Assembly (NCBI GenBank): GCA_041908065.1
Contig: JAYRGC010000050.1
Span: forward strand, 21,718-85,717
Source: Alphaproteobacteria bacterium
Lineage (GTDB): Bacteria > Pseudomonadota > Alphaproteobacteria > UBA9219
Length of the DNA stretch: 64,000 nt
Direction: 5' to 3'
The notes under the pieces are model-generated. The model made no database searches. It was not told the DNA's origin and worked only from the letters and a program-made list of their open reading frames with translations. This document shows positions 3,271 to 24,218 of the stretch, one piece after another (the first letter of the stretch is position 1; each line of letters begins with the position of its first letter). The translations under genes and the position numbers were made by a program.

Positions 3271-3350
<80 letters not shown>

Positions 3351-6246: not shown

Positions 6247-7059
6247 ATGTTTTTCCCGCCCAACCTAGGCCCGCAATTCGTCGCGGTCATAGATCCCATA
6301 ATGAAATCCGACGCGCCGGATCATATCCGCATGATGAACGCTTGGAGCATGTTGAACGGCTTGCAGGGCGTGGTCTTAAGCCAGATGATTCGTAATCGCA
6401 TGGGCGAAAACGTCTTGGCCGGACCGTTTAGCGGGATGCGGCTGACCAAGGAAGCTCTGTCCGGCCATTTCGCGCCCGCCCTTTTGGGCAGCTACGAATG
6501 GGAGCTGCACGACACCATCGAAAAGGTCATAGCCCATCAGTACAAGCAGGTGCTGAACATCGGCTGTTCCTACGGCTATTACAGCGTCGGTTTGGCCAAG
6601 CGGATGCCAGAAGCGAAAGTTATGGCCTTCGACATAGATCCCATTGCCCGCGTCAAATGCGGCTCGATGATAGCCGCCAACGGGGTCGAGGGCCGCGTGA
6701 CGGTGGGCGAACGATTCAACGGCGAGGATTTCGCCCGCCTGTCGGGGCCGGAAACGCTGGTGATAATGGACATCGAAGGCGGGGAGATGGATTTGTTGAA
6801 CGTGGAATCCTATCCCGCGCTTAAGGGCATGGACGTGATAGTGGAGCTGCACGACTGCTATAATCCGGCCATATCCAAGACGATCGCCGACCGTTTCTCG
6901 GCAACTCATAAGGTGGAGATAATCCCCAACCGCCCGTTCCATTTTCCTTTGGAGAAGATTTTGGGACCGGATTACGTCCCCAATCACTTCGACGGGCTGA
7001 TCGCGACGTGGGAAGGCCGATCCGGCCCCACCCCATGGGCGGTGATGCGGCGTAGGTGA
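6247..7059 (+). CDS. Class I SAM-dependent methyltransferase (FkbM-like?)
   Basis: Gly-rich SAM motif NIGCSYGYYSVGLA followed by acidic FDIDP; start chosen at ATG 6247 after AGGAAA. Confidence 0.45.
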   Translation: MFFPPNLGPQFVAVIDPIMKSDAPDHIRMMNAWSMLNGLQGVVLSQMIRNRMGENVLAGPFSGMRLTKEALSGHFAPALLGSYEWELHDTIEKVIAHQYKQVLNIGCSYGYYSVGLAKRMPEAKVMAFDIDPIARVKCGSMIAANGVEGRVTVGERFNGEDFARLSGPETLVIMDIEGGEMDLLNVESYPALKGMDVIVELHDCYNPAISKTIADRFSATHKVEIIPNRPFHFPLEKILGPDYVPNHFDGLIATWEGRSGPTPWAVMRRR

Positions 7060-7110
7060 AAGGTTGACGCAATCCGGCGAAACGGTTAAAGCATCGCATC
7101 TGATGTTGCC

Positions 7111-7185
7111 GCCGTTGTAGCTCAGCGGTAGAGCAGGGCTTTCGTAAAGCCAAGGTCGGGGGTTCAAATCCCTCCAACGGCACCA
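7111..7185 (+). tRNA. tRNA-Thr (anticodon CGT); integration target of the downstream element
   Basis: Acceptor gccgttg/caacggc, anticodon loop ttCGTaa, T-loop ttcaaat, CCA encoded; its 3' 45 nt are repeated at 61151-61195. Confidence 0.8.
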
Positions 7186-7186
7186 T
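7141..7186 (+). repeat. attL: 46-bp core identical to 61151-61196 (3' half of tRNA-Thr)
   Basis: ttcgtaaagccaaggtcgggggttcaaatccctccaacggcaccat present at both positions. Confidence 0.8.
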
Positions 7187-7212
7187 TTTTATGTTGGAAT
7201 ATCAAAGCAATA

Positions 7213-7247
7213 GGCGGCGGCTTCGGCCCCGCCTTTTCGCTTTTTAG
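7213..7247 (+). terminator. Rho-independent terminator candidate downstream of tRNA-Thr
   Basis: GC hairpin ggcggcggcttcggccccgcc followed by ttttcgcttttt. Confidence 0.5.
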
Positions 7248-7376
7248 CCCTGATTTTAACTTTTGGAAGCAGGTTGGAAGCAATAGGGAGCAAGTCGGAG
7301 CGAAAAATAATGCAGTTCCGGCTACGCGGGAGCACGAAGAATCTGACCGAAAAAATGGAAGCCGCGCCTTTGGGCA

Positions 7377-7916
7377 TCAGCAGTTTCTGACCACACCTAC
7401 AACGCATCCCAAGACCGCGAAGTCGTCTGAGAGGGCGATGGAGATTGGCTTATAGGCTGAATTCTCCGGCATCAACGTAATCTTGCCGCTCTTGTCGCGA
7501 CGGAAGGTTTTGACGGTGGGCTGACCGCACACGTTGGCGACGACGATCTTGCCGTTCTTCGCTTCTGCCTTGCGGTCGACAATCAGGATATCGCCGTCGA
7601 ATATTCTGGCCCCCACCATGGAGTCGCCGGTGACCTTGAGCAGGAATGTGTCCGCCGGATGCTGCACCAGCAGGCTATTGAGATTGACGCGTCCGTCGAT
7701 ATGGTCGTCGGCGAAGCCTGGCTGACCTGCTGGGACGTGCGAGGTGTAGAGGGGCAGCCTGAACCCACGCGCCTCGATGAACGAGACAACGTCTTCATAA
7801 ATGCTCATCGGCACGCGCAGAGGCTTCGTAGCCTCTCCCCATGGGCCGGTGCCTTTCGGTCGGCCTGCGCCGGGGCGCACACCGCCGTGTGAGCTTTTTG
7901 CCTTGCCTTTCTTTGC
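7377..7916 (-). CDS. S24-family peptidase (UmuD / phage CI-LexA-like autocleaving repressor C-terminal domain)
   Basis: LPLYTSHVPAG...NLNSLLVQHPADTFLLKVTGDSMVGARIFDGDILIVDR...MPENSAYKPI closely parallels UmuD; start set at GTG 7916 preceded by GGAGG (alternatives ATG 8027 or 7808). Confidence 0.6.
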   Translation of the reverse strand, partial: AKKGKAKSSHGGVRPGAGRPKGTGPWGEATKPLRVPMSIYEDVVSFIEARGFRLPLYTSHVPAGQPGFADDHIDGRVNLNSLLVQHPADTFLLKVTGDSMVGARIFDGDILIVDRKAEAKNGKIVVANVCGQPTVKTFRRDKSGKITLMPENSAYKPISIALSDDFAVLGCVVGVVRNC

Positions 7917-8088
7917 GGGTTTCTTGACCACTGCATCGCCTCCTGAAAATTGCGAAACGAAAAGAGCGCGACAAGAAAAAACAGAAAATGACAACTTATG
8001 ACATTTACAAACGATTGATTTTTTCATTGTGCCAGATTACTGTGCGCTAATCAAGCCTGATTTTCAAGCCACCTTTCTGGAGGTCAAG

Positions 8089-8757
8089 ATGAGCCTTCCC
8101 CGCCGCAATTATTTCTCTGTTTTCGAGGTCATGGCGCGTTGGGGAATCACGAACACCGACATGCGGTATTATCTTGAATCCGGCCTGTTGCAGGCACAGG
8201 TCTTGTTGGCCGAAAAACTGGTGCAGGTTTATCACCGCCTTGAGACGCCCGAGAAAGAGGAGGCCTGGATCAAGAAATTGATCATCAAGATCGATGGCTA
8301 CGTTGTGATCCAGCCCGAGCAGTTGCGGACGGTCTTTCGTTTGAAGTCGGCCCCCATCCACAAATTCAAATCCGTCGACGGCCCCGAGCATTACAAGCTG
8401 TTGCGCGAGAAAGAGATCACGCCCGTCGGTATCGAGGATCTTTGGATTTCAAGTTTGGAATGCGCCCGCGTCGAGCGCGAGCATGGAATTGCGAATGATC
8501 GTGACGCTCTCGCCAATGGATCGAAAACGGGCATTATTGCCCTGTCTGCAGGGCGACCCAGCATCATGCAGCGGATCACAGAAAGGCATCAGGAACGCAT
8601 CGGTTCAGGTGAAGCATTGCCGTCCGTGGCGGCAGAAGCCAAACTTCTGCGCAGTTGGGCGAAGGAATCCATTCCCGGCGTGCAAATCCCGTCGGTGAAA
8701 ACGATCCGGAACCAGCTCTATTCCGCAGGCGCTGAACAATCCCGAAATTGTGCCTGA
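8089..8757 (+). CDS. Hypothetical phage protein (divergent from S24 gene)
   Basis: ORF with GGAGG RBS 6 nt before ATG 8089; no recognisable domain. Confidence 0.4.
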   Translation: MSLPRRNYFSVFEVMARWGITNTDMRYYLESGLLQAQVLLAEKLVQVYHRLETPEKEEAWIKKLIIKIDGYVVIQPEQLRTVFRLKSAPIHKFKSVDGPEHYKLLREKEITPVGIEDLWISSLECARVEREHGIANDRDALANGSKTGIIALSAGRPSIMQRITERHQERIGSGEALPSVAAEAKLLRSWAKESIPGVQIPSVKTIRNQLYSAGAEQSRNCA

Positions 8758-9125
8758 AATTATGCCTGAAATTCCGCGCGCCTTTTTTATCCTGAAAAAT
8801 CAGATGCCTAAAAATAATGATTTCGGGCATAATTTCAGGCATTGACGTTTTTCTTTGGCTCATTTCCCGTTGCGCGCGGCTCACGGCTGCGCCGTTATTA
8901 TCGCGTCTTATCGCAATCGTTCGTGCTGGCGCGAGTTTTCCGAGAAGATTCCGATGATCCGACTCGAGATCACAGCCTTTTGTGGCTGCCGCGCAGTCCC
9001 GAAAAAGTGCCCGAAATTATCCCGAAATGTGCCCGAAATTACGGGCGGTCATTTTTCGCCTGTAAAATCAAGCTCCTGAAAAAATAATTTCGGGCACATT
9101 TCAGGCACTATTTCGGGCATTAAAT
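8740..9125. promoter_or_regulatory. Array of ~12 copies of an 11-12-bp motif TGCC(C/T)GAAAT(T) in two inverted clusters (operator-like multi-site region)
   Basis: cccgaaattgtgcctgaaattatgcctgaaatt / atttcgggcataatttcaggcat / gtgcccgaaattatcccgaaatgtgcccgaaatt / atttcgggcacatttcaggcactatttcgggcat, spaced about one helical turn apart. Confidence 0.55.
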
Positions 9126-9170
9126 CTGCGCTTCTTAAAGGGCCTCACGCAACGACGCGAAGAGGCTCTT

Positions 9171-9452
9171 ATGAACATCACACATCTCTCTCAATCCGAA
9201 CTGGCCACGCGGTGGCGCATCTCGATGCGAACGCTCGAACGTTGGCGCTGGCTGGGCGAAGGTCCGCGCTTCATCAAGCTCGGCGGGCGCGTCGTCTACC
9301 GCTTGTCCGACATCGAGGCGTTTGAGGCCGACAAGCTGCGCAGCAGCACGAGCCAAACCCAGCCCATCCCCGATTTCCGAAACGAATGCGCGGCTCCACC
9401 CCCCGCATCGGAACAATTTTCCCAACCGCTTCGCAGAAGGAGAGCATCATGA
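9171..9452 (+). CDS. AlpA/Xis-like helix-turn-helix DNA-binding protein
   Basis: LSQSELATRWRISMRTLERWRWLGEGPRFIKLGGRVVYRLSDIEAF is a typical AlpA/MerR-type excisionase-like HTH; the same domain occurs at the integrase C-terminus. Confidence 0.65.
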   Translation: MNITHLSQSELATRWRISMRTLERWRWLGEGPRFIKLGGRVVYRLSDIEAFEADKLRSSTSQTQPIPDFRNECAAPPPASEQFSQPLRRRRAS

Positions 9453-9943
9453 ACTTGCCCAACCGCATTACGTTTGACCAGATCAAGGACTGGCCACCAA
9501 GCAAAATCGCCACACTCTCCGTCGAGGAACTGGCATGTCTTGCTGGCGATATTGCCGATGCTAAAGCCCACGTCGCGGCTGTCGAAAACAAGCTGCGCGG
9601 TGGTCTTGATCTCAAATATGGTCACCGCGCTTCGACGCAGCGTTCGAGCCTCGGCAAAGACACAGGCATCGTGCGTTTTGAAGACGGTACCTTCACTGTT
9701 GTGGCAGAATTGCCGAAGCGGGTGAAGTGGGATCAAGCGCTTCTGGCCGTGGCCGTCAAAACCATCGCCGAGCAATGGCGTGACGATCCGGCGCAGTATG
9801 TCGGTACGGAATACAAGGTCTCGGAAGCTGCGTACACGGCATGGCCGGATGTTTTGCGCAAACTGTTCGAGCCCGCCCGCACGGTCGAGCATGGCAAACC
9901 CGTCTATCGGCTTGAAAAGCAGAACGATGGAGGCCAATCATGA
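9449..9943 (+). CDS. Hypothetical phage protein
   Basis: ATGA-overlapped start at 9449 after GAAGGAGAG; no recognisable domain. Confidence 0.4.
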   Translation: MNLPNRITFDQIKDWPPSKIATLSVEELACLAGDIADAKAHVAAVENKLRGGLDLKYGHRASTQRSSLGKDTGIVRFEDGTFTVVAELPKRVKWDQALLAVAVKTIAEQWRDDPAQYVGTEYKVSEAAYTAWPDVLRKLFEPARTVEHGKPVYRLEKQNDGGQS

Positions 9944-17666: not shown

Positions 17667-17759
17667 TCGTGATGGCTGGATAAAAAAGTGTCTGCCGGAC
17701 ACTTTTCTATGATACAAAAACGCAAGAATTCTGGTAGTTCTTAATCATGATCGGGAGAG

Positions 17760-18125
17760 GCACGAGCGGGCAATGCGGCTCTGATGGATCATGTTACACC
17801 GTCCGACATCATCGCACAGTATCCAACATTTTTGCACAGTATCCGAGGTTTTTCGAACAGCACCCGACATCATCTCACATCATCGCACAGTATCCGACAT
17901 CATGCGGAGAGGATCGCCTCTTTCAGCAATTATAGGACGCTTTCGGCAAGGAAAATGCATCGAAAATTGCTACATCATCGCAACATCATCTGACACCATT
18001 CAACACTATCGAACATCATCCGACATCGTTCGACATGACCTCACATGAACGCACATCATCGCACATGATCTCGCATGAACGTGCATCACCTCACATGATC
18101 GAACATCATCTCAGATGATCGCGGT
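17760..18125. repeat. Repeat-dense, AT-richer non-coding spacer (CGCACAGTATCC x3; ACATCATC / CACATGA(T/A)C x~15)
   Basis: Degenerate short tandem and interspersed repeats; several GATC-containing units; no RBS-supported ORF. Confidence 0.5.
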
Positions 18126-18322: not shown

Positions 18323-19696
18323 TTGAATGGTCTGGCTCTATCTGCCGCCGGAGGCGATCACGCATGCCCAAACGAAGTGCGCGCGCTGTTCGGCCTCTCG
18401 CTCTGCGCGGGCGCAGGCGGGCTCGACCTCGGCCTTCATCTTGCCGTGTCCGGATATCGTACTGTTTGTTACGTCGAGCGGGAAAGCTATGCCGCATCCA
18501 CTCTCGTGGCGCGGATGGAAGACGAGGCCTTGGATTGCGCGCCTGTCTGGGACGACGTTACCAACTTCAACGGCAAAGCGTGGCGCGGTGTGGTGGATAT
18601 CGTCCATGGCGGCTATCCATGCCAGCCGTTTTCCGTGGCGGGGCGCAAGCTCGGCGACAAAGACCCGCGCCACCTCTGGCCGCACATCGCGCGGATCGTC
18701 CGTGAAGTCAAACCGCCTGTCTGTTTCTTCGAAAACGTCGGCGGACATTTACGATTGGGGTTTGAACAGGTCGCAGATGACCTTCGAGCAATGGGTTACC
18801 GCGTTAAGGCAGGCTTGTTTACGGCGGCAGAAGTCGGCGCGCCTCACAAACGCGAACGGCTGTTCATCCTGGCCTACTGCGAGGGTTTCTTCGGCGAACG
18901 AGGCTTCGCGCAAAGAGATCTTGGCTGGGAACCCAAAATATCGCTTGGAGGTGAGCGCGCAGCTTTGGCTCACGCCGCGCGCGCAGGAGACGACGGAAAA
19001 GCAGGAAAGCTTCATAAAGCGCAACGGCGACAGGACAGGACGATGCTTCGGCTCCCTGACGGCGCAATCGACGTTATGGCCGACCGCGACGGCAACGGAC
19101 TCGCTCGTTCAGCGTGCCAGACCGCCAGAGAAAATGATCCGCAAGGACGGAAGAAACGTCCTTCGCACGCCGAGCCTTGCGGAGACGGTGCTGCAGCCGA
19201 AGGGCTTTCCGTACACGAAGCAGGATTTGCAAAAGGCAAAAAGCGGCGGCAGATACCGAACGGCAAAAACGCAATGGCCAACGCCGCGCGCGCAGGAACC
19301 GGGGAGTACCAGTTCGGATCACGGGATCAGTTTGACGGAGGCCAGCAAAACGTGGCCGACGCCTCGTGCATGCTCGGGCAAAAGATCAAGCGGCATGAAC
19401 AGGACGGAGCTTGTGGGAGCGTGGGCGACGCCAACGACACGCGACTGGAAGGACGGCGCGGCGACGGCGGATGTGAAGACCAACTGTCTGCTTGGCCGCC
19501 AAGCCCCACGCAGCATGGCGAATGGGAGCGCGTTCCCGCTGACCTTAAACCCGCGATTTGTCGAATGGCTGATGGGCTGGCCAGTCAACTGGACTGCCGC
19601 GTCGACCGACTCCGCCTTTGCGGCAACGGCGTGGTGCCGTTGGTCGCGGCTTATGCGTTTTGCACTCTGGCAACTGAAGCTATCAAAGAAAACTGA
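18323..19696 (+). pseudogene. DNA (cytosine-5)-methyltransferase with two apparent frameshifts
   Basis: The three conserved blocks lie in different frames (frame of 18323 / frame of 18327 / frame of 18323); switches fall around 18885-18962 and 19595-19617; motif detail given under findings. Confidence 0.55.
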
Positions 19697-19702
19697 AACC
19701 CT

Positions 19703-20926
19703 ATGACAGAAACGAACACGAAAATGGCCGAACGGATTGAGCTTTGGCCGCTGGATCGGCTTGTGCCCTATGACCGAAATCCGCGCACGCATTCGGAGGA
19801 ACAAATCAGTCAGATCGCGGCCAGCATTGTCGAGTTCGGGTTTCTCAATCCCATTCTGGTCGATACGGCAGCGGGGATCATTGCAGGGCATGGCCGCCTT
19901 CAGGCGGCAAAACAACTAGGCCTGACGCAAGTCCCCGTCGTCGTTCTCGATCATCTGAGCGAAGCGCAAAAACGCGCTTACGTCATCGCGGATAACAAGC
20001 TGGCGCTTAATGCCGGTTGGGACGACGATCTTTTGCGTGATGAATTGGCGGCCTTGGGGGAAGACGGGTTCGACGTTTCGCTCACTGGCTTTTCGGATGA
20101 GGAGCTTGCCGATCTGTTGGAGGATGACGGCGCGGCTGGGAATACAGACGAAGACGCTGTTCCGGAAGCCCCCGTCGATCCCGTCACCAAGGTGGGCGAT
20201 GTTTATGTTCTTGGCGATCATCGTTTGCTCTGCGGCGATAGCACTGTGCTCGCAAATGTCGAGAAAGTTCTCGATGGCGCGCTGGCCGATATGGTATTTA
20301 CGGATCCGCCCTACAATGTGAATTATTCAAATAGCCCCAAGGACAAAATGCGCGGCAACAACCGCGCCATCATGAACGACAATCTCGGCGATGGATTTGA
20401 GAAGTTTCTGTACGACGCTTGCGTCAATATGATCGCAGTCTGCAAGGGCGCGATTTACGTCTGCATGTCCTCAAGCGAACTGCACACGCTTCAAAAAGCG
20501 TTTGTAGCTGCGGGCGGTAAATGGTCGACTTTCGTCATTTGGGCCAAGAACACGTTTACGCTGGGGCGCTCGGACTATCAACGCCAGTACGAGCCTATCC
20601 TCTACGGTTGGAAGCAAGGCGCGGATCATTTCTGGTGCGGCGCGCGCGATCAGGGCGACGTTTGGTTTGTGAACAAGCCAACGAAGAACGATCTGCACCC
20701 GACCATGAAGCCTGTCGAGCTTGTCGAACGCGCCGTCCGCAACAGCAGCAAGAGCCGCGATATCGTCTTGGATTGCTTCGGCGGCTCCGGCAGCACGCTC
20801 ATCGCTTGCGAAAAAACAGGCCGTCAGGCGCGCTTAATCGAATTGGATCCCAAATACTGCGACGTGATCGTCCAGCGTTGGGAGGAGTTTACGGGCAAAA
20901 AAGCTGAATTAATCTCGCAACCTTAA
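19703..20926 (+). CDS. ParB-like nuclease N-terminal domain fused to N6-adenine/N4-cytosine DNA methyltransferase
   Basis: ParB-N box ILVDTAAGIIAGHGRLQAAKQLG; methyltransferase motif IV DPPY (FTDPPYNVNY); C-terminal SAM motif LDCFGGSGST. Confidence 0.75.
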   Translation: MTETNTKMAERIELWPLDRLVPYDRNPRTHSEEQISQIAASIVEFGFLNPILVDTAAGIIAGHGRLQAAKQLGLTQVPVVVLDHLSEAQKRAYVIADNKLALNAGWDDDLLRDELAALGEDGFDVSLTGFSDEELADLLEDDGAAGNTDEDAVPEAPVDPVTKVGDVYVLGDHRLLCGDSTVLANVEKVLDGALADMVFTDPPYNVNYSNSPKDKMRGNNRAIMNDNLGDGFEKFLYDACVNMIAVCKGAIYVCMSSSELHTLQKAFVAAGGKWSTFVIWAKNTFTLGRSDYQRQYEPILYGWKQGADHFWCGARDQGDVWFVNKPTKNDLHPTMKPVELVERAVRNSSKSRDIVLDCFGGSGSTLIACEKTGRQARLIELDPKYCDVIVQRWEEFTGKKAELISQP

Positions 20927-21813: not shown

Positions 21814-22332
21814 ATGGGACTATCAGCTTCCGCTTACGCCAAGCGACGCGGCGTCAGCCATGTCGCCGTGCTCAAGGCCATCAAGACAGGCCGTATCGTC
21901 AAAGAGAAGGACGGCACCATCGATCCCGACAAAGCCGATGCCGCGTGGACGAAGAACACGGATCCCGCGCAGCAGCGCAAGGCACCGAAGAAGAGCGAAC
22001 AAGCGCCTGAACGCCCAATCGATCCGCCGCTTGCGAACAGCGGCCCGAACTACGCGCAAAGCCGCGCGATCAAGGAGGCCTATCTCGCGCGGCTCGCCAA
22101 GCTGGAATACGAGGAAAAGTCTGCCATTCTCGTCCGCGCCGATGCCGTTAAGGTCGCGTGGTTCAACACGCTGCGCGTCTTGCGCGACCGCGCGTTGAAT
22201 CTGCCGGATCGACTTGCACCCGTTCTCGCCACAGAAAATGATCCGCGCAAGATCGGCGAGATTCTGGGCGCCGAGTTACGGCAGATACTGGATGATGCGG
22301 CAGATGCCGTTATAAGCGCGGGCGAACGATGA
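21814..22332 (+). CDS. Terminase small subunit (HTH N-terminus)
   Basis: N-terminal wHTH (ASAYAKRRGVSHVAVLKAIKTGRI); sits immediately upstream of and overlaps terminase large subunit. Confidence 0.55.
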   Translation: MGLSASAYAKRRGVSHVAVLKAIKTGRIVKEKDGTIDPDKADAAWTKNTDPAQQRKAPKKSEQAPERPIDPPLANSGPNYAQSRAIKEAYLARLAKLEYEEKSAILVRADAVKVAWFNTLRVLRDRALNLPDRLAPVLATENDPRKIGEILGAELRQILDDAADAVISAGER

Positions 22333-24218
22333 ACGTTTTACAAGACTGCCTCGCGCATGCCGCGCTTGCGCTGCGGCCAGACCCCTTGCTGACGGTTTCG
22401 GAATGGTCGGACGCGCACAGGTTCCTCTCGCAAACGGCCTCCGGCGAGCCCGGGCCGTGGCGGACGGAGCGGACGCCGTATCTGAAAGAGATCATGGATT
22501 GCCTTTCGCCGTCCTCGCCTGTCGAGCGCGTCGTGTTCATGAAAGGCGCGCAGATCGGCGGGACGGAAGCAGGCAATAACTGGATCGGCTATGTCATCCA
22601 TCATGCGCCGGGGCCGATGCTCGCTGTGCAGCCGACGGTTGAGATGGCCAAACGCTGGTCGAAACAGCGCGTCGCGGCCTTGATCGACAGCACGCCGGTT
22701 TTGCGGACACGCATCAAGGAGGCTCGGTCGCGGGACAGTGGCAACACGGTTCAGAGCAAGGAGTTTCCGGGTGGCATCCTTGTGATGACCGGCGCAAACA
22801 GCGCGGTGGGGCTGCGATCAATGCCCGTGCGGTATCTGTTTCTGGACGAGGTTGACGCTTATGATTTTGACGTGGACGGCGAAGGCGATCCGGTGGGTCT
22901 CGCCACGCAGCGCACGATCACGTTCGCCAACCGGAAAATCTTTCTGGTCTCGACTCCGACGATCCAAGGGTTCAGCCGTATTGAGATAGAATACGAGAAG
23001 TCCGACAAGCGGCGCTTCTGGGTGCCTTGCCCCGAATGCGGCGAGTATCAGGTATTGGAAGAGAAACGCCTGCAATGGGAAAAAGGCAAGCCCGAAACGG
23101 CTTCGTACTTTTGCTCCGCTTGTGGCTGCGGGATACCGAGCCACAAGAAACGCTGGATGAACGGTCAAGGTGAATGGCGGGCCGAGGAACCTGGCGCGGG
23201 GAAAGCGGCAGGATTCCATTTATCCGGCCTTTATAGCCCTTGGCTCAGCTGGCAGCAGATCGCGGAACGCAAGATCGCAGCCCGCGACGACGCGGCGATG
23301 AAGGTTTACGTCAACACCATCGAGGCGCGGACATGGACGGAATCTGGCGAAGCGCCGGAATGGCAAAGGCTTTATGATCGCCGTGATAGCTACCGGCTCT
23401 GCACGGTTCCCGCTGGAGGATTGTTTCTCACGGCTGGTGTGGACGTGCAGGATAACCGGCTCGAACTTGAGATCGTGGCGTGGGGCCGTGAACGTGAAAG
23501 CTGGTCGGTAGATTATCGCGTCCTGCAAGGCAGGCCGTCCGACAAAGATGTGTGGAACGCCTTGGACGCCGTTTTGGAAGAGAGCTTTACGCACGACAGC
23601 GGCGCGCGGATTGGCATCGTCAAGGTCGCCATCGATACAGGTGGCCATTACACGTCGCAGGTTTATGACTGGGTGCGCGGTAAACAAGGCGATCGCGTTC
23701 TGGCCATCAAAGGCGTTCACGGGCTTGGCGCGGCCATTGGGTTGCCGAGCCATGCGGACGTGACGACGCAGGGCAAACGTAAGCGGCGCGGTTTGTTGAT
23801 CTGGCCGGTCGGTTCGTCCTTTTGCAAGTCCGAGCTTTACGGCTGGCTTCGCAAAGACAAGCCGACCGACGAACAAATGGCTGATGGCGAAGACTTCCCC
23901 ATCGGCTTCTGCCACTTTCCGAAGTATCCGGAAGAGTATTTCAAGCAGCTGACGGCGGAGCGGCTGGTCACGAAAAAAGACCCGCGCGGCTTCCCGCGCC
24001 GCGAATGGCACAAGATGTACGAACGCAACGAGGCTCTTGACTGCCGCGTCTATGCACGCGCCGCCGCTGCGGCCTATGGGATCGACAGATTTACGGACAC
24101 GATATGGGATCGGCTTGAGGAAGCGTTAGGGCAGAAAAAGCAAGCACCCGAGCAAGAAGCGATCAAAACGTCCACGCCGCCGCCTGCGCGGCGCATCATC
24201 AGGAGCAGTTATCTATGA
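22329..24218 (+). CDS. Terminase large subunit, lambda GpA family
   Basis: Length and N-terminal GpA-type organisation, Walker A-like GAQIGGTEAGNNW; followed by gpW-like and lambda-family portal genes. Confidence 0.75.
   Translation: MNVLQDCLAHAALALRPDPLLTVSEWSDAHRFLSQTASGEPGPWRTERTPYLKEIMDCLSPSSPVERVVFMKGAQIGGTEAGNNWIGYVIHHAPGPMLAVQPTVEMAKRWSKQRVAALIDSTPVLRTRIKEARSRDSGNTVQSKEFPGGILVMTGANSAVGLRSMPVRYLFLDEVDAYDFDVDGEGDPVGLATQRTITFANRKIFLVSTPTIQGFSRIEIEYEKSDKRRFWVPCPECGEYQVLEEKRLQWEKGKPETASYFCSACGCGIPSHKKRWMNGQGEWRAEEPGAGKAAGFHLSGLYSPWLSWQQIAERKIAARDDAAMKVYVNTIEARTWTESGEAPEWQRLYDRRDSYRLCTVPAGGLFLTAGVDVQDNRLELEIVAWGRERESWSVDYRVLQGRPSDKDVWNALDAVLEESFTHDSGARIGIVKVAIDTGGHYTSQVYDWVRGKQGDRVLAIKGVHGLGAAIGLPSHADVTTQGKRKRRGLLIWPVGSSFCKSELYGWLRKDKPTDEQMADGEDFPIGFCHFPKYPEEYFKQLTAERLVTKKDPRGFPRREWHKMYERNEALDCRVYARAAAAAYGIDRFTDTIWDRLEEALGQKKQAPEQEAIKTSTPPPARRIIRSSYL

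Follow-up and report, generated by a model that had tools for sequence, protein, structure and literature searches.

In a prophage on an alphaproteobacterial contig (JAYRGC010000050.1, positions 21,718 to 85,717; these 64,000 nucleotides are referred to here as the window), a region of ~380 bases carries 12 copies of an asymmetric 11-bp site with the consensus (T/A)(G/T)CC(C/T)GAAAT(T), arranged in forward and then reverse orientation within each of two paralogous modules. The array lies between the gene for a 222-residue orphan protein (8089-8757) and the gene for an HTH_17 protein (9171-9452), which heads a cluster of recombination and replication genes. Across related phages, the sequence of the sites changes together with the C-terminal domain of the upstream protein, making this domain very probably the reader of the array. 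We give a probability of about one half to the reading that this protein forms a cooperative complex on the array, folded by integration host factor (IHF), which gates the early recombination and replication operon.

A pattern search for exact TGCCYGAAAT returns nine copies within 8751-9119 (369 bp) and none in the rest of the 64 kb, compared with an expectation, by our own arithmetic, of about 0.24 for the whole window; the motif is confined to the array rather than scattered. The relaxed pattern YSCCYGAAAW gives 12 matches against 4.3 expected, a number reached by none of 100 shuffles. With degenerate copies included, 12 sites occupy 8739-9119 with 11-12-bp phasing, confirming the ~12 sites in two inverted clusters described in the original prediction, which had been made from the letters of this DNA alone. 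Each module (module 1, 8739-8841; module 2, 8996-9119) consists of forward sites, an A/T-rich spacer of 45 bp, and reverse sites (Table 1), with an offset of ~257-267 bp between the two (repeat families D1-D3). The G+C content of 100-bp windows is 39-47% at the module 1 spacer and 42-43% at the module 2 spacer, against ~55-60% in the surroundings. The description of this 0.4-kb stretch as non-coding holds for 8758-9170, as the open reading frames (ORFs) found there (81, 74, and 46 aa) extend across the repeats and fall in sequence that one-module relatives lack, but it fails at the left edge, where the first forward sites overlap the last codons and stop codon of 8089-8757, with F2 of module 1 containing the stop.

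In a comparison with about 35 related phages, the close relatives show the same gene order and the same module, present once or twice in the gap before HTH_17, with three forward and three reverse sites that start at the stop codon of the 8089-like gene and end ~50 bp before the HTH_17 ATG. In 15 modules from 12 loci of the type represented by the window (type A, defined below), the spacing within F1-F3 and within R1-R3 is 11(12) bp, and the start of F3 is separated from the start of R1 by 53-59 bp. Type-A arrays always start at, or no more than about 10 bp from, the stop codon of the 8089-like gene, and in every case some 50-110 bp lie between array and ATG. In two loci (L076 and L078) the regulator and HTH_17 genes are parted by a 1.1-kb insertion, with the array remaining beside HTH_17. 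Most loci hold a single module, with two found in the window, in L023 (a Bdellovibrionales metagenome-assembled genome, 64% protein identity), and in L024 and L025; in these loci the modules are 150-190 bp apart, and the intervening sequence is partly conserved and confined to them. Module 2 of the window is orthologous to the single module of L001 and L022. The statement that the pattern repeats twice is correct for the window, whilst the distribution among relatives indicates that the second copy is a duplication of the module and not part of the basic design.

In the 222-residue protein an N-domain (about residues 1-140, phrog_13283), whose first part is MerR/HTH_17-like, is joined through a disordered linker to a C-domain (about 152-215). 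The C-domain, termed type A, contains an invariant G-R-P-(S/T) arm and three helices (AlphaFold2 (AF2) predicted local distance difference test (pLDDT) score of 84). The protein has no sequence match in Pfam, NCBIfam, or the PDB, and its close relatives amount to only 13 clusters in 5.8 billion proteins, with the modular family as a whole giving 427 hidden Markov model (HMM) matches in 1.84 billion cluster representatives (E ≤ 0.001). No homologue of the window protein is present in 50,697 GenBank phage records, in which the type-B member P0089 has one match, to an unannotated record. Close patterns retrieved no relatives from IMG/VR and only two from GTDB genomes; the IMG/VR loci were fetched with an alignment of distant family members and with HTH_17 homologues, the C-domain alignment being too divergent to serve as a locus probe. 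The N-domain is also paired with a different, winged-helix-like C-domain (type B), and the type-A C-domain is also found behind other N-domains, including the receiver domain of the response regulator P0154 (L085 867-1835), where this 'GRP-arm three-helix' domain forms the C-terminal output domain. The type-A domain is therefore not confined to phages, and a DNA-binding output domain would be expected in just such a position as it has in P0154. The 8089-8757 protein fits none of the known families; its family and architecture are undescribed, although the principle, a phage DNA-binding protein with a phased array of sites, is ordinary.

The exchange of C-domains is accompanied by an exchange of sites. 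Within the 330 bp upstream of HTH_17 in non-redundant loci, the 14 loci with a type-A C-domain carry means of 5.4 CGAAAT-type and 0.14 TCCCAC-type sites, and the 20 loci with a type-B (winged-helix) C-domain carry means of 0.05 and 5.65 respectively. The correspondence extends to variation within type A, with a helix 3 of the form (T/S)IANA(I/M)R adjoining TGCACGAAAT arrays (L060, L061, L063), and a helix 3 of the form TI(R/Q/L)N(Q/N)L adjoining (T/A)(G/T)CCCGAAAT arrays. Furthermore, in L086 a type-A C-domain is attached to an unrelated N-domain and is followed by a helicase gene in place of HTH_17, and here two forward and two reverse (C/A)(T/A)CGAAA(A/T) sites start at the stop codon. The HTH-like (helix-turn-helix-like) start of the N-domain (M.LP.K.YF.L.E.A.RW...D..YY.E.G.L) is common to type-A and type-B proteins, and so is not the determinant of specificity. 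Amongst the three candidate binders proposed originally, namely the products of 8089-8757 and HTH_17 and the S24 protein encoded divergently to the left, it is the first whose C-domain tracks the motif; the recognition region of HTH_17 does not change with the sites, and at least one locus with the same array and long flanks shows no S24 gene. The binding of the array by the C-domain is, as a consequence, the most probable part of our interpretation.

The spacers between forward and reverse sites are otherwise divergent, but 14 of the 15 contain, at the same offset, a match to the IHF core WATCAANNNNTTR at no fewer than 7 of its 9 positions, whereas 1000 shuffles average 3.6 such spacers and never exceed 10. 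The IHF-like core of module 2 matches 8 of the 9 consensus positions, and the core is preceded, at a distance of 13-15 bp, by an A- or T-tract.

These features suggest a model in which each 11-bp site would be read by one C-terminal domain, with the three-helix bundle predicted to contact C(C/A/T)CG in the major groove and the GRP(S/T) arm to sit in the A/T minor groove of AAAT. Spacing by a helical turn would place three or four protomers head-to-tail on one face of the DNA, and a second set of protomers, in opposite orientation, would assemble ~56 bp away. Host IHF may then fold the DNA back at the A/T-rich spacer; from the known properties of IHF, a U-turn midway between the convergent arrays would bring F3/R1, F2/R2, and F1/R3 side by side, allowing the two arrays to be bridged via the conserved N-domain. 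The compact complex, ~50 bp upstream of the HTH_17 gene, would gate the early recombination and replication operon. Activation after prophage induction seems the more likely direction, as an activator made only after induction would be a simpler account of a replication operon that is silent in the lysogen, with repression or a roadblock also possible. The suggestion that the region is a multi-site binding region and not a simple promoter is supported, the sites being helically phased and their binding probably cooperative, whereas nothing in evidence favours its proposed role in anti-terminator loading.

Control of the operon is supported by the fixed distance of the array to a conserved leader (A/T-rich stretch, TGCGC, and Shine-Dalgarno hairpin), by the retention of the array beside HTH_17 despite the insertion in L076 and L078, and by the use of the type-A domain in a response regulator. 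A promoter scan found no sigma-70 consensus promoter in 8740-9170, which fits a factor-dependent promoter. Some loci combine a type-B-like C-domain with another N-domain; there the upstream gene is followed by a canonical intrinsic terminator ahead of the array, which means that a promoter must be at or just past the array. Several points weigh against this reading. The evidence for the binder is all correlation, across loci that share ancestry. A promoter at the array itself is presumed: no convincing -10/-35 elements could be placed there, and placement by eye across relatives gave no consistent solution. Loci with an N1-domain, the window among them, have no terminator between 8089-8757 and the array, and read-through from the upstream promoter could serve the operon with no second promoter; a terminator scan returned two weak candidates only, at 8874 and 9030, the latter being a copy of the motif. 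Module 1 would drive merely a non-coding segment of 150 nt. Lastly, the geometry is equally that of an origin of the type found in staphylococcal pathogenicity islands (SaPIs).

A phage replication origin, with the 8089-8757 protein as a non-helicase initiator, is accordingly a close rival to operon gating, though we hold it to be possible rather than probable. Initiator protomers on the convergent iterons would melt the A/T-rich, IHF-bent centre and recruit the helicase and primase encoded downstream. The array stands at the head of the recombination and replication cluster, directly before the helicase gene in L086, has a motif that is confined to one place in the prophage, and has spacers of 39-47% G+C with an IHF-like site. 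The DNA-binding domain and its sites are exchanged together as a cassette, as are those of lambda O and its ori, and the duplicated modules are reminiscent of P4 ori/crr. The geometry also matches that described for SaPI origins, in which 6-12 short iterons directly follow the rep ORF, with an A/T-rich centre and opposed orientations on each side, and in which the iterons are swapped along with a C-terminal DNA-binding domain that determines specificity (PMC9371898). Additionally, the L060 spacer contains a perfect DnaA box, TTATCCACA, and the TCCCAC arrays of L079, L082, and L083 have one at their 5' edge, with TTTTCCACA or TTGTCCACA at the same place in L069, L072, and L074-L078; in the type-B relatives a DnaA-box-like TT(A/T/G)TCCACA holds a fixed position beside an inverted GTGGGA site, and the L060 copy lies at 3301. 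However, this element of the type-B arrays could be a degenerate TCC(C)AC site, those arrays have no obvious A/T-rich centre, and no DnaA box (TTATCCACA or TGATCCACA) within one mismatch occurs in 8700-9170 of the window. The 222-residue protein shows no signature of an ATPase, a helicase, or any known initiator or loader, its type-A domain is also used by a response regulator, and a second array at 17796-18120, just past the replication genes, is an equally good candidate for the origin. Origin function and promoter control could also coexist, as with plasmid Rep proteins.

Readings in which another protein, or no protein, recognises the repeats are considerably weaker. The HTH_17 protein could form head-to-tail filaments on the sites, as BldC, Xis, Cox, and Apl do on theirs, and so autoregulate its own operon: its gene always follows the array, its fold is a MerR/excisionase-type winged helix with a weak match to the BldC family (E 0.012, far below the cut-off), and the sites of the window read on the other strand as AATTTCGGG, to be compared with the direct repeats AATTNNNN(C), for example AATTCGGTC and GAATTTCGC, bound head-to-tail by BldC (PMC5859096). 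However, the same recognition region (S.RTLERWRWLGEGP) stands unchanged behind arrays of the unrelated motifs TCCCC, TTCTCYC, TCACAC, TGTCACA, GCCCGTACA, and TGCAGAAC, in homologues with 59-74% identity to the window protein over the first 60-90 residues. As the motif follows the C-domain of the upstream protein, and as L086 has CGAAA-type sites with no HTH_17 gene downstream, this explanation is unlikely. Operators of the S24 (LexA-like) repressor, silencing the replication operon in the lysogen, are more doubtful still. S24 homologues with an unusual N-terminus (GRPKG.GPWGE) occur in most type-A loci, including L060 and L061, with none seen in type-B loci, and their GRP motif could sit in the AAAT minor groove; they lie beside most, but not all, of the array-bearing loci. 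The two-module relative L023 has the same array and no S24 gene in 20.7 kb (10 kb each side of the regulator gene), and L024, L025, L027, and L063 also give no match, albeit with short flanks, with a DUF5710 gene as the adjacent gene in L024 and L025. The divergent gap 7935-8088, the usual position for an operator, holds no copy of the motif, and in L086 the sites lie beside an unrelated divergent gene. A lambdoid immunity operator of the OR/OL type was rejected on similar grounds, the sites being asymmetric, downstream of the first rightward gene, and missing from 7935-8088.

The inverted arrays could also act as nucleic acid structure, either as an RNA hairpin (attenuator or processing site) or as a DNA cruciform, and we regard this as the least likely of the explanations. 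If transcribed, module 2 would fold with -58.3 kcal/mol (z -8.5) and module 1 with -37.8 kcal/mol (z -5.9), yet arm pairing over 15 modules is 85.0% compared with a shuffled-partner mean of 85.6%, and 497 of 500 shuffles are at least as high. Compensatory change is seen in one cell only, and at four columns pairing fails in 8-10 of the 13-15 modules for which both positions exist. This lack of compensatory change between the arms indicates that a hairpin, in RNA or as a cruciform, is not under selection, and the complementarity of the arms is a by-product of the same motif in both orientations. A hairpin also has no need of the 11-bp internal periodicity, and type-B arrays, mostly direct repeats, cannot pair. 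A search of Rfam with 7000-9600 gave the tRNA as the sole real match, with matches of miRNA families to the modules far below gathering scores and reflecting hairpin shape. The partition-like centromere raised in the original prediction was rejected: no ParM/ParA ATPase or ParR adaptor is encoded in 7-18 kb, and the sole ParB-like domain, 10 kb away, is part of a fusion with a methyltransferase. Nor is the array likely to be an arm of an attachment site or a set of recombination-directionality sites, with no integrase amongst the ORFs scanned beside tRNA-Thr (7186-7376) or at the far end of the phage genes (41000-46000), no direct repeat of the tRNA-Thr 3' end in 7-50 kb, and 1.5 kb between the array and the tRNA.

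Table 1. Coordinates of the site array and its neighbours in the window
Feature	Position	Strand	Description
S24 (LexA/UmuD-like) autopeptidase gene	7377-7934	-	Divergent; start taken as the 185-aa form of relatives
222-aa orphan gene	8089-8757	+	First gene of rightward operon; candidate array binder
Module 1 forward sites F1-F3	8739, 8751, 8763; through 8773	+	ATCCCGAAATT (8739), TGCCTGAAATT (8751 and 8763); spacing 12, 12 bp
Module 1 spacer	8774-8818		T-tract 8783-8788; IHF-like core AATCAGATGCCTA 8798-8810; degenerate motif copies 8789, 8805
Module 1 reverse sites R1-R2	8819-8829, 8831-8841	-	TGCCCGAAATC, TGCCTGAAATT on minus strand
Inter-module segment	8842-8995		Partly conserved block ATCGCAATC.TTCG.GC.GCGCGA
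Module 2 forward sites F0 (weak), F1, F2, F3	8996, 9008, 9019, 9030; through 9040	+	GTCCCGAAAAA, TGCCCGAAATT, ATCCCGAAATG, TGCCCGAAATT; spacing 12, 11, 11 bp
Module 2 spacer	9041-9085		T-tract 9052-9056; IHF-like core AATCAAGCTCCTG 9066-9078; degenerate motif copy 9073
Module 2 reverse sites R1-R3	9086-9096, 9097-9107, 9109-9119	-	TGCCCGAAATT, TGCCTGAAATG, TGCCCGAAATA on minus strand
Conserved leader	9120-9170	+	A/T-rich 6-8 bp, TCTGCGC 9125-9131, hairpin 9138-9170; conserved in all type-A relatives
HTH_17 (MerR/excisionase-like) gene	9171-9452	+	First gene past array; heads recombination/replication cluster

The prophage adjoins tRNA-Thr (7111-7185). The S24 protein matches Pfam Peptidase_S24 (E 6e-33) and the NCBIfam UmuD-like (113.6 bits) and LexA (107 bits) models, just above the UmuD cut-off and just below that of LexA; its N-terminus is short and atypical (GAGRPKGTGPWGE...), with ~45 residues that include a conserved GAGRPKG.GPWGEAT.P.R.P and no recognisable HTH, and its role as immunity repressor is our assumption. 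The 8089-8757 gene had been placed on the immunity side of the locus, a placement that does not stand given its position as the first gene of the rightward operon. In the leader of HTH_17, the hairpin takes in the Shine-Dalgarno region, with pairing that extends to the last base ahead of the ATG (dG -17.7 kcal/mol, z -2.8). It is also found at the same place in L001-L027, following a conserved T(C/T)TGCGC, and may act in translational control or be bound by the invariant HTH_17 protein. HTH_17 is followed by phrog_2480, a Sak4-like AAA_24 protein, phrog_2300, a helicase, a Cas4-like nuclease, a Toprim-AAA_25 primase-helicase, a RuvC-like resolvase, and DUF6362, with methyltransferases, terminase (21814-24218), and portal genes further downstream. 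One relative, L021, encodes a tyrosine integrase that has an HTH_17 segment fused to its C-terminus, together with two further small HTH_17 genes left of the S24 gene.

The segment between the two modules (8842-8995) contains no convincing ORF or RNA structure, and a small RNA or peptide was rejected there, as the consensus structure reaches only -8.2 kcal/mol and the indels are not multiples of three. It does contain an inverted near-copy of part of the HTH_17 leader (8868-8880 compared with 9142-9154; CGTTGCGCGCGGC and GCCTCACGCAACG), and the equivalent segment of L025 (about 1858-1873) has a 16-bp palindrome, TTCGCGCCTGCGCGAA. The array at 17796-18120 is unrelated to that described above and is denser. 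In it a 10-bp unit (ACATCATCNC / ACAGTATCCG type) recurs ~25 times with a phasing of exactly 10 bp, in two blocks with a ~60-bp spacer between them. It follows the intrinsic terminator (about 17684-17706) that closes the replication genes and precedes the methyltransferase and ParB-methyltransferase genes (18327-20926), and could serve as an origin, as a control region of the late operon, or as a pac-related site. Further paralogous repeats lie at the distal end of the phage region (42623-44958), with three copies of the 69-nt family D3 and two of the 131-nt family D2.

Comparable repeats are also seen outside the family. Five unrelated viral contigs of IMG/VR (L008, L010, L011, L019, and L020), which came to light only because arrays of this sort are what the search pattern selects, contain 5-12 perfect tandem 11-mers whose cores are similar (GAACCTGAAAT, TTGTCCTGATA, TTTGCCTGAAA), and TTGACA follows the array in L010, L011, and L020. 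Acidithiobacillus phage AcaML1 (L084) is among the only cultured phages with a clear HTH_17 homologue (gp9, annotated 'transcriptional regulator'); the gap upstream of gp9 (record 6600-6830) has three A(A/C)CGAAA copies and no 8089-like gene.

The series of domain and site swaps seen in these sequences is unusually clear. Should the proposed recognition be correct, it would give a testable function to two orphan domains, phrog_13283 (the N-domain) and the unnamed C-terminal domain, and would provide a natural specificity-swap series running from type A (CCCGAAAT, CACGAAAT, CTCGAAA) to type B (TCCCAC and variants), with potential use in deriving a recognition code, in obtaining orthogonal regulator/operator pairs, and in predicting which prophages cross-regulate or cross-replicate. 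The array would also mark the control point or origin of the replication module in an alphaproteobacterial-type group of prophages. If it is instead the origin of widespread uncultured temperate phages, which we consider a minority prospect, the 8089-8757 protein would represent a new class of small non-helicase initiators, with a conserved effector N-domain (phrog_13283) and interchangeable C-terminal DNA-binding domains, each with its own iterons. The 'GRP-arm three-helix' domain would then be a newly described domain shared with bacterial response regulators, with the code relating helix 3 to C-C/A/T-C-G readable from natural variants.

In its workings the device is like several known cooperative multi-site systems, yet it lacks a defining feature of each. 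The 11-bp iterons of R1 parC, in two clusters flanking a promoter-bearing core, are bound cooperatively by ParR in a wrapped complex, and the array likewise has 11-bp units in two clusters around a short core. The parC iterons are all direct, however, and are read by a ribbon-helix-helix protein encoded downstream with an actin-like ATPase, and no partition ATPase is found here. At lambda cosB (gpNu1 R3-I1-R2), which is the textbook precedent, the pSC101 ori, and the Mu operator, an IHF site lies between inverted protein sites, and its U-turn joins them for a bridging oligomer, as proposed for the array; cosB, however, serves packaging beside the terminase genes, which here are 12 kb away. OmpR and PhoB boxes are tandem direct repeats with 10-11-bp phasing upstream of factor-dependent promoters without a good -35. 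The array resembles them in its phasing, with the response regulator P0154 using a type-A output domain, and differs in having a convergent second array and in its likely phage-encoded reader, which has a different DNA-binding fold and no receiver domain. In contrast to iteron plasmid and phage origins (pSC101, R6K, lambda type), there are no ~17-22-bp iterons with a Rep/O-type initiator (WH1-WH2 or Phage_rep_O), and the window array is without a DnaA box, with boxes present in L060, L079, L082, and L083.

Lambda Xis, P2 Cox, and 186 Apl form head-to-tail filaments on helically phased sites. BldC (PMC5859096) and mycobacteriophage D29 Gp36 (PMC12266134) similarly bind asymmetric sites about one helical turn apart, cooperatively and on one face of the DNA, with the A/T tract of each site read through the minor groove. 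The likely reader of the present array is a three-helix GRP-arm domain and not a MerR-like HTH_17 protein, and the two convergent arrays flank an IHF-like site and are not located at an att site or divergent switch region. The closest likeness in layout is to the SaPI origin and Rep (PMC9371898), where iterons directly follow the ORF of their reader in two opposed sets around an A/T-rich centre, and the C-terminal specificity domain is exchanged with the iterons. The SaPI Rep protein has a C-terminal winged helix and acts as a self-loading hexameric helicase, whereas the array described here, with its 11-bp units at strict helical phasing and a central IHF-like site, is paired with a 222-residue protein that has no ATPase and a predicted three-helix C-domain.

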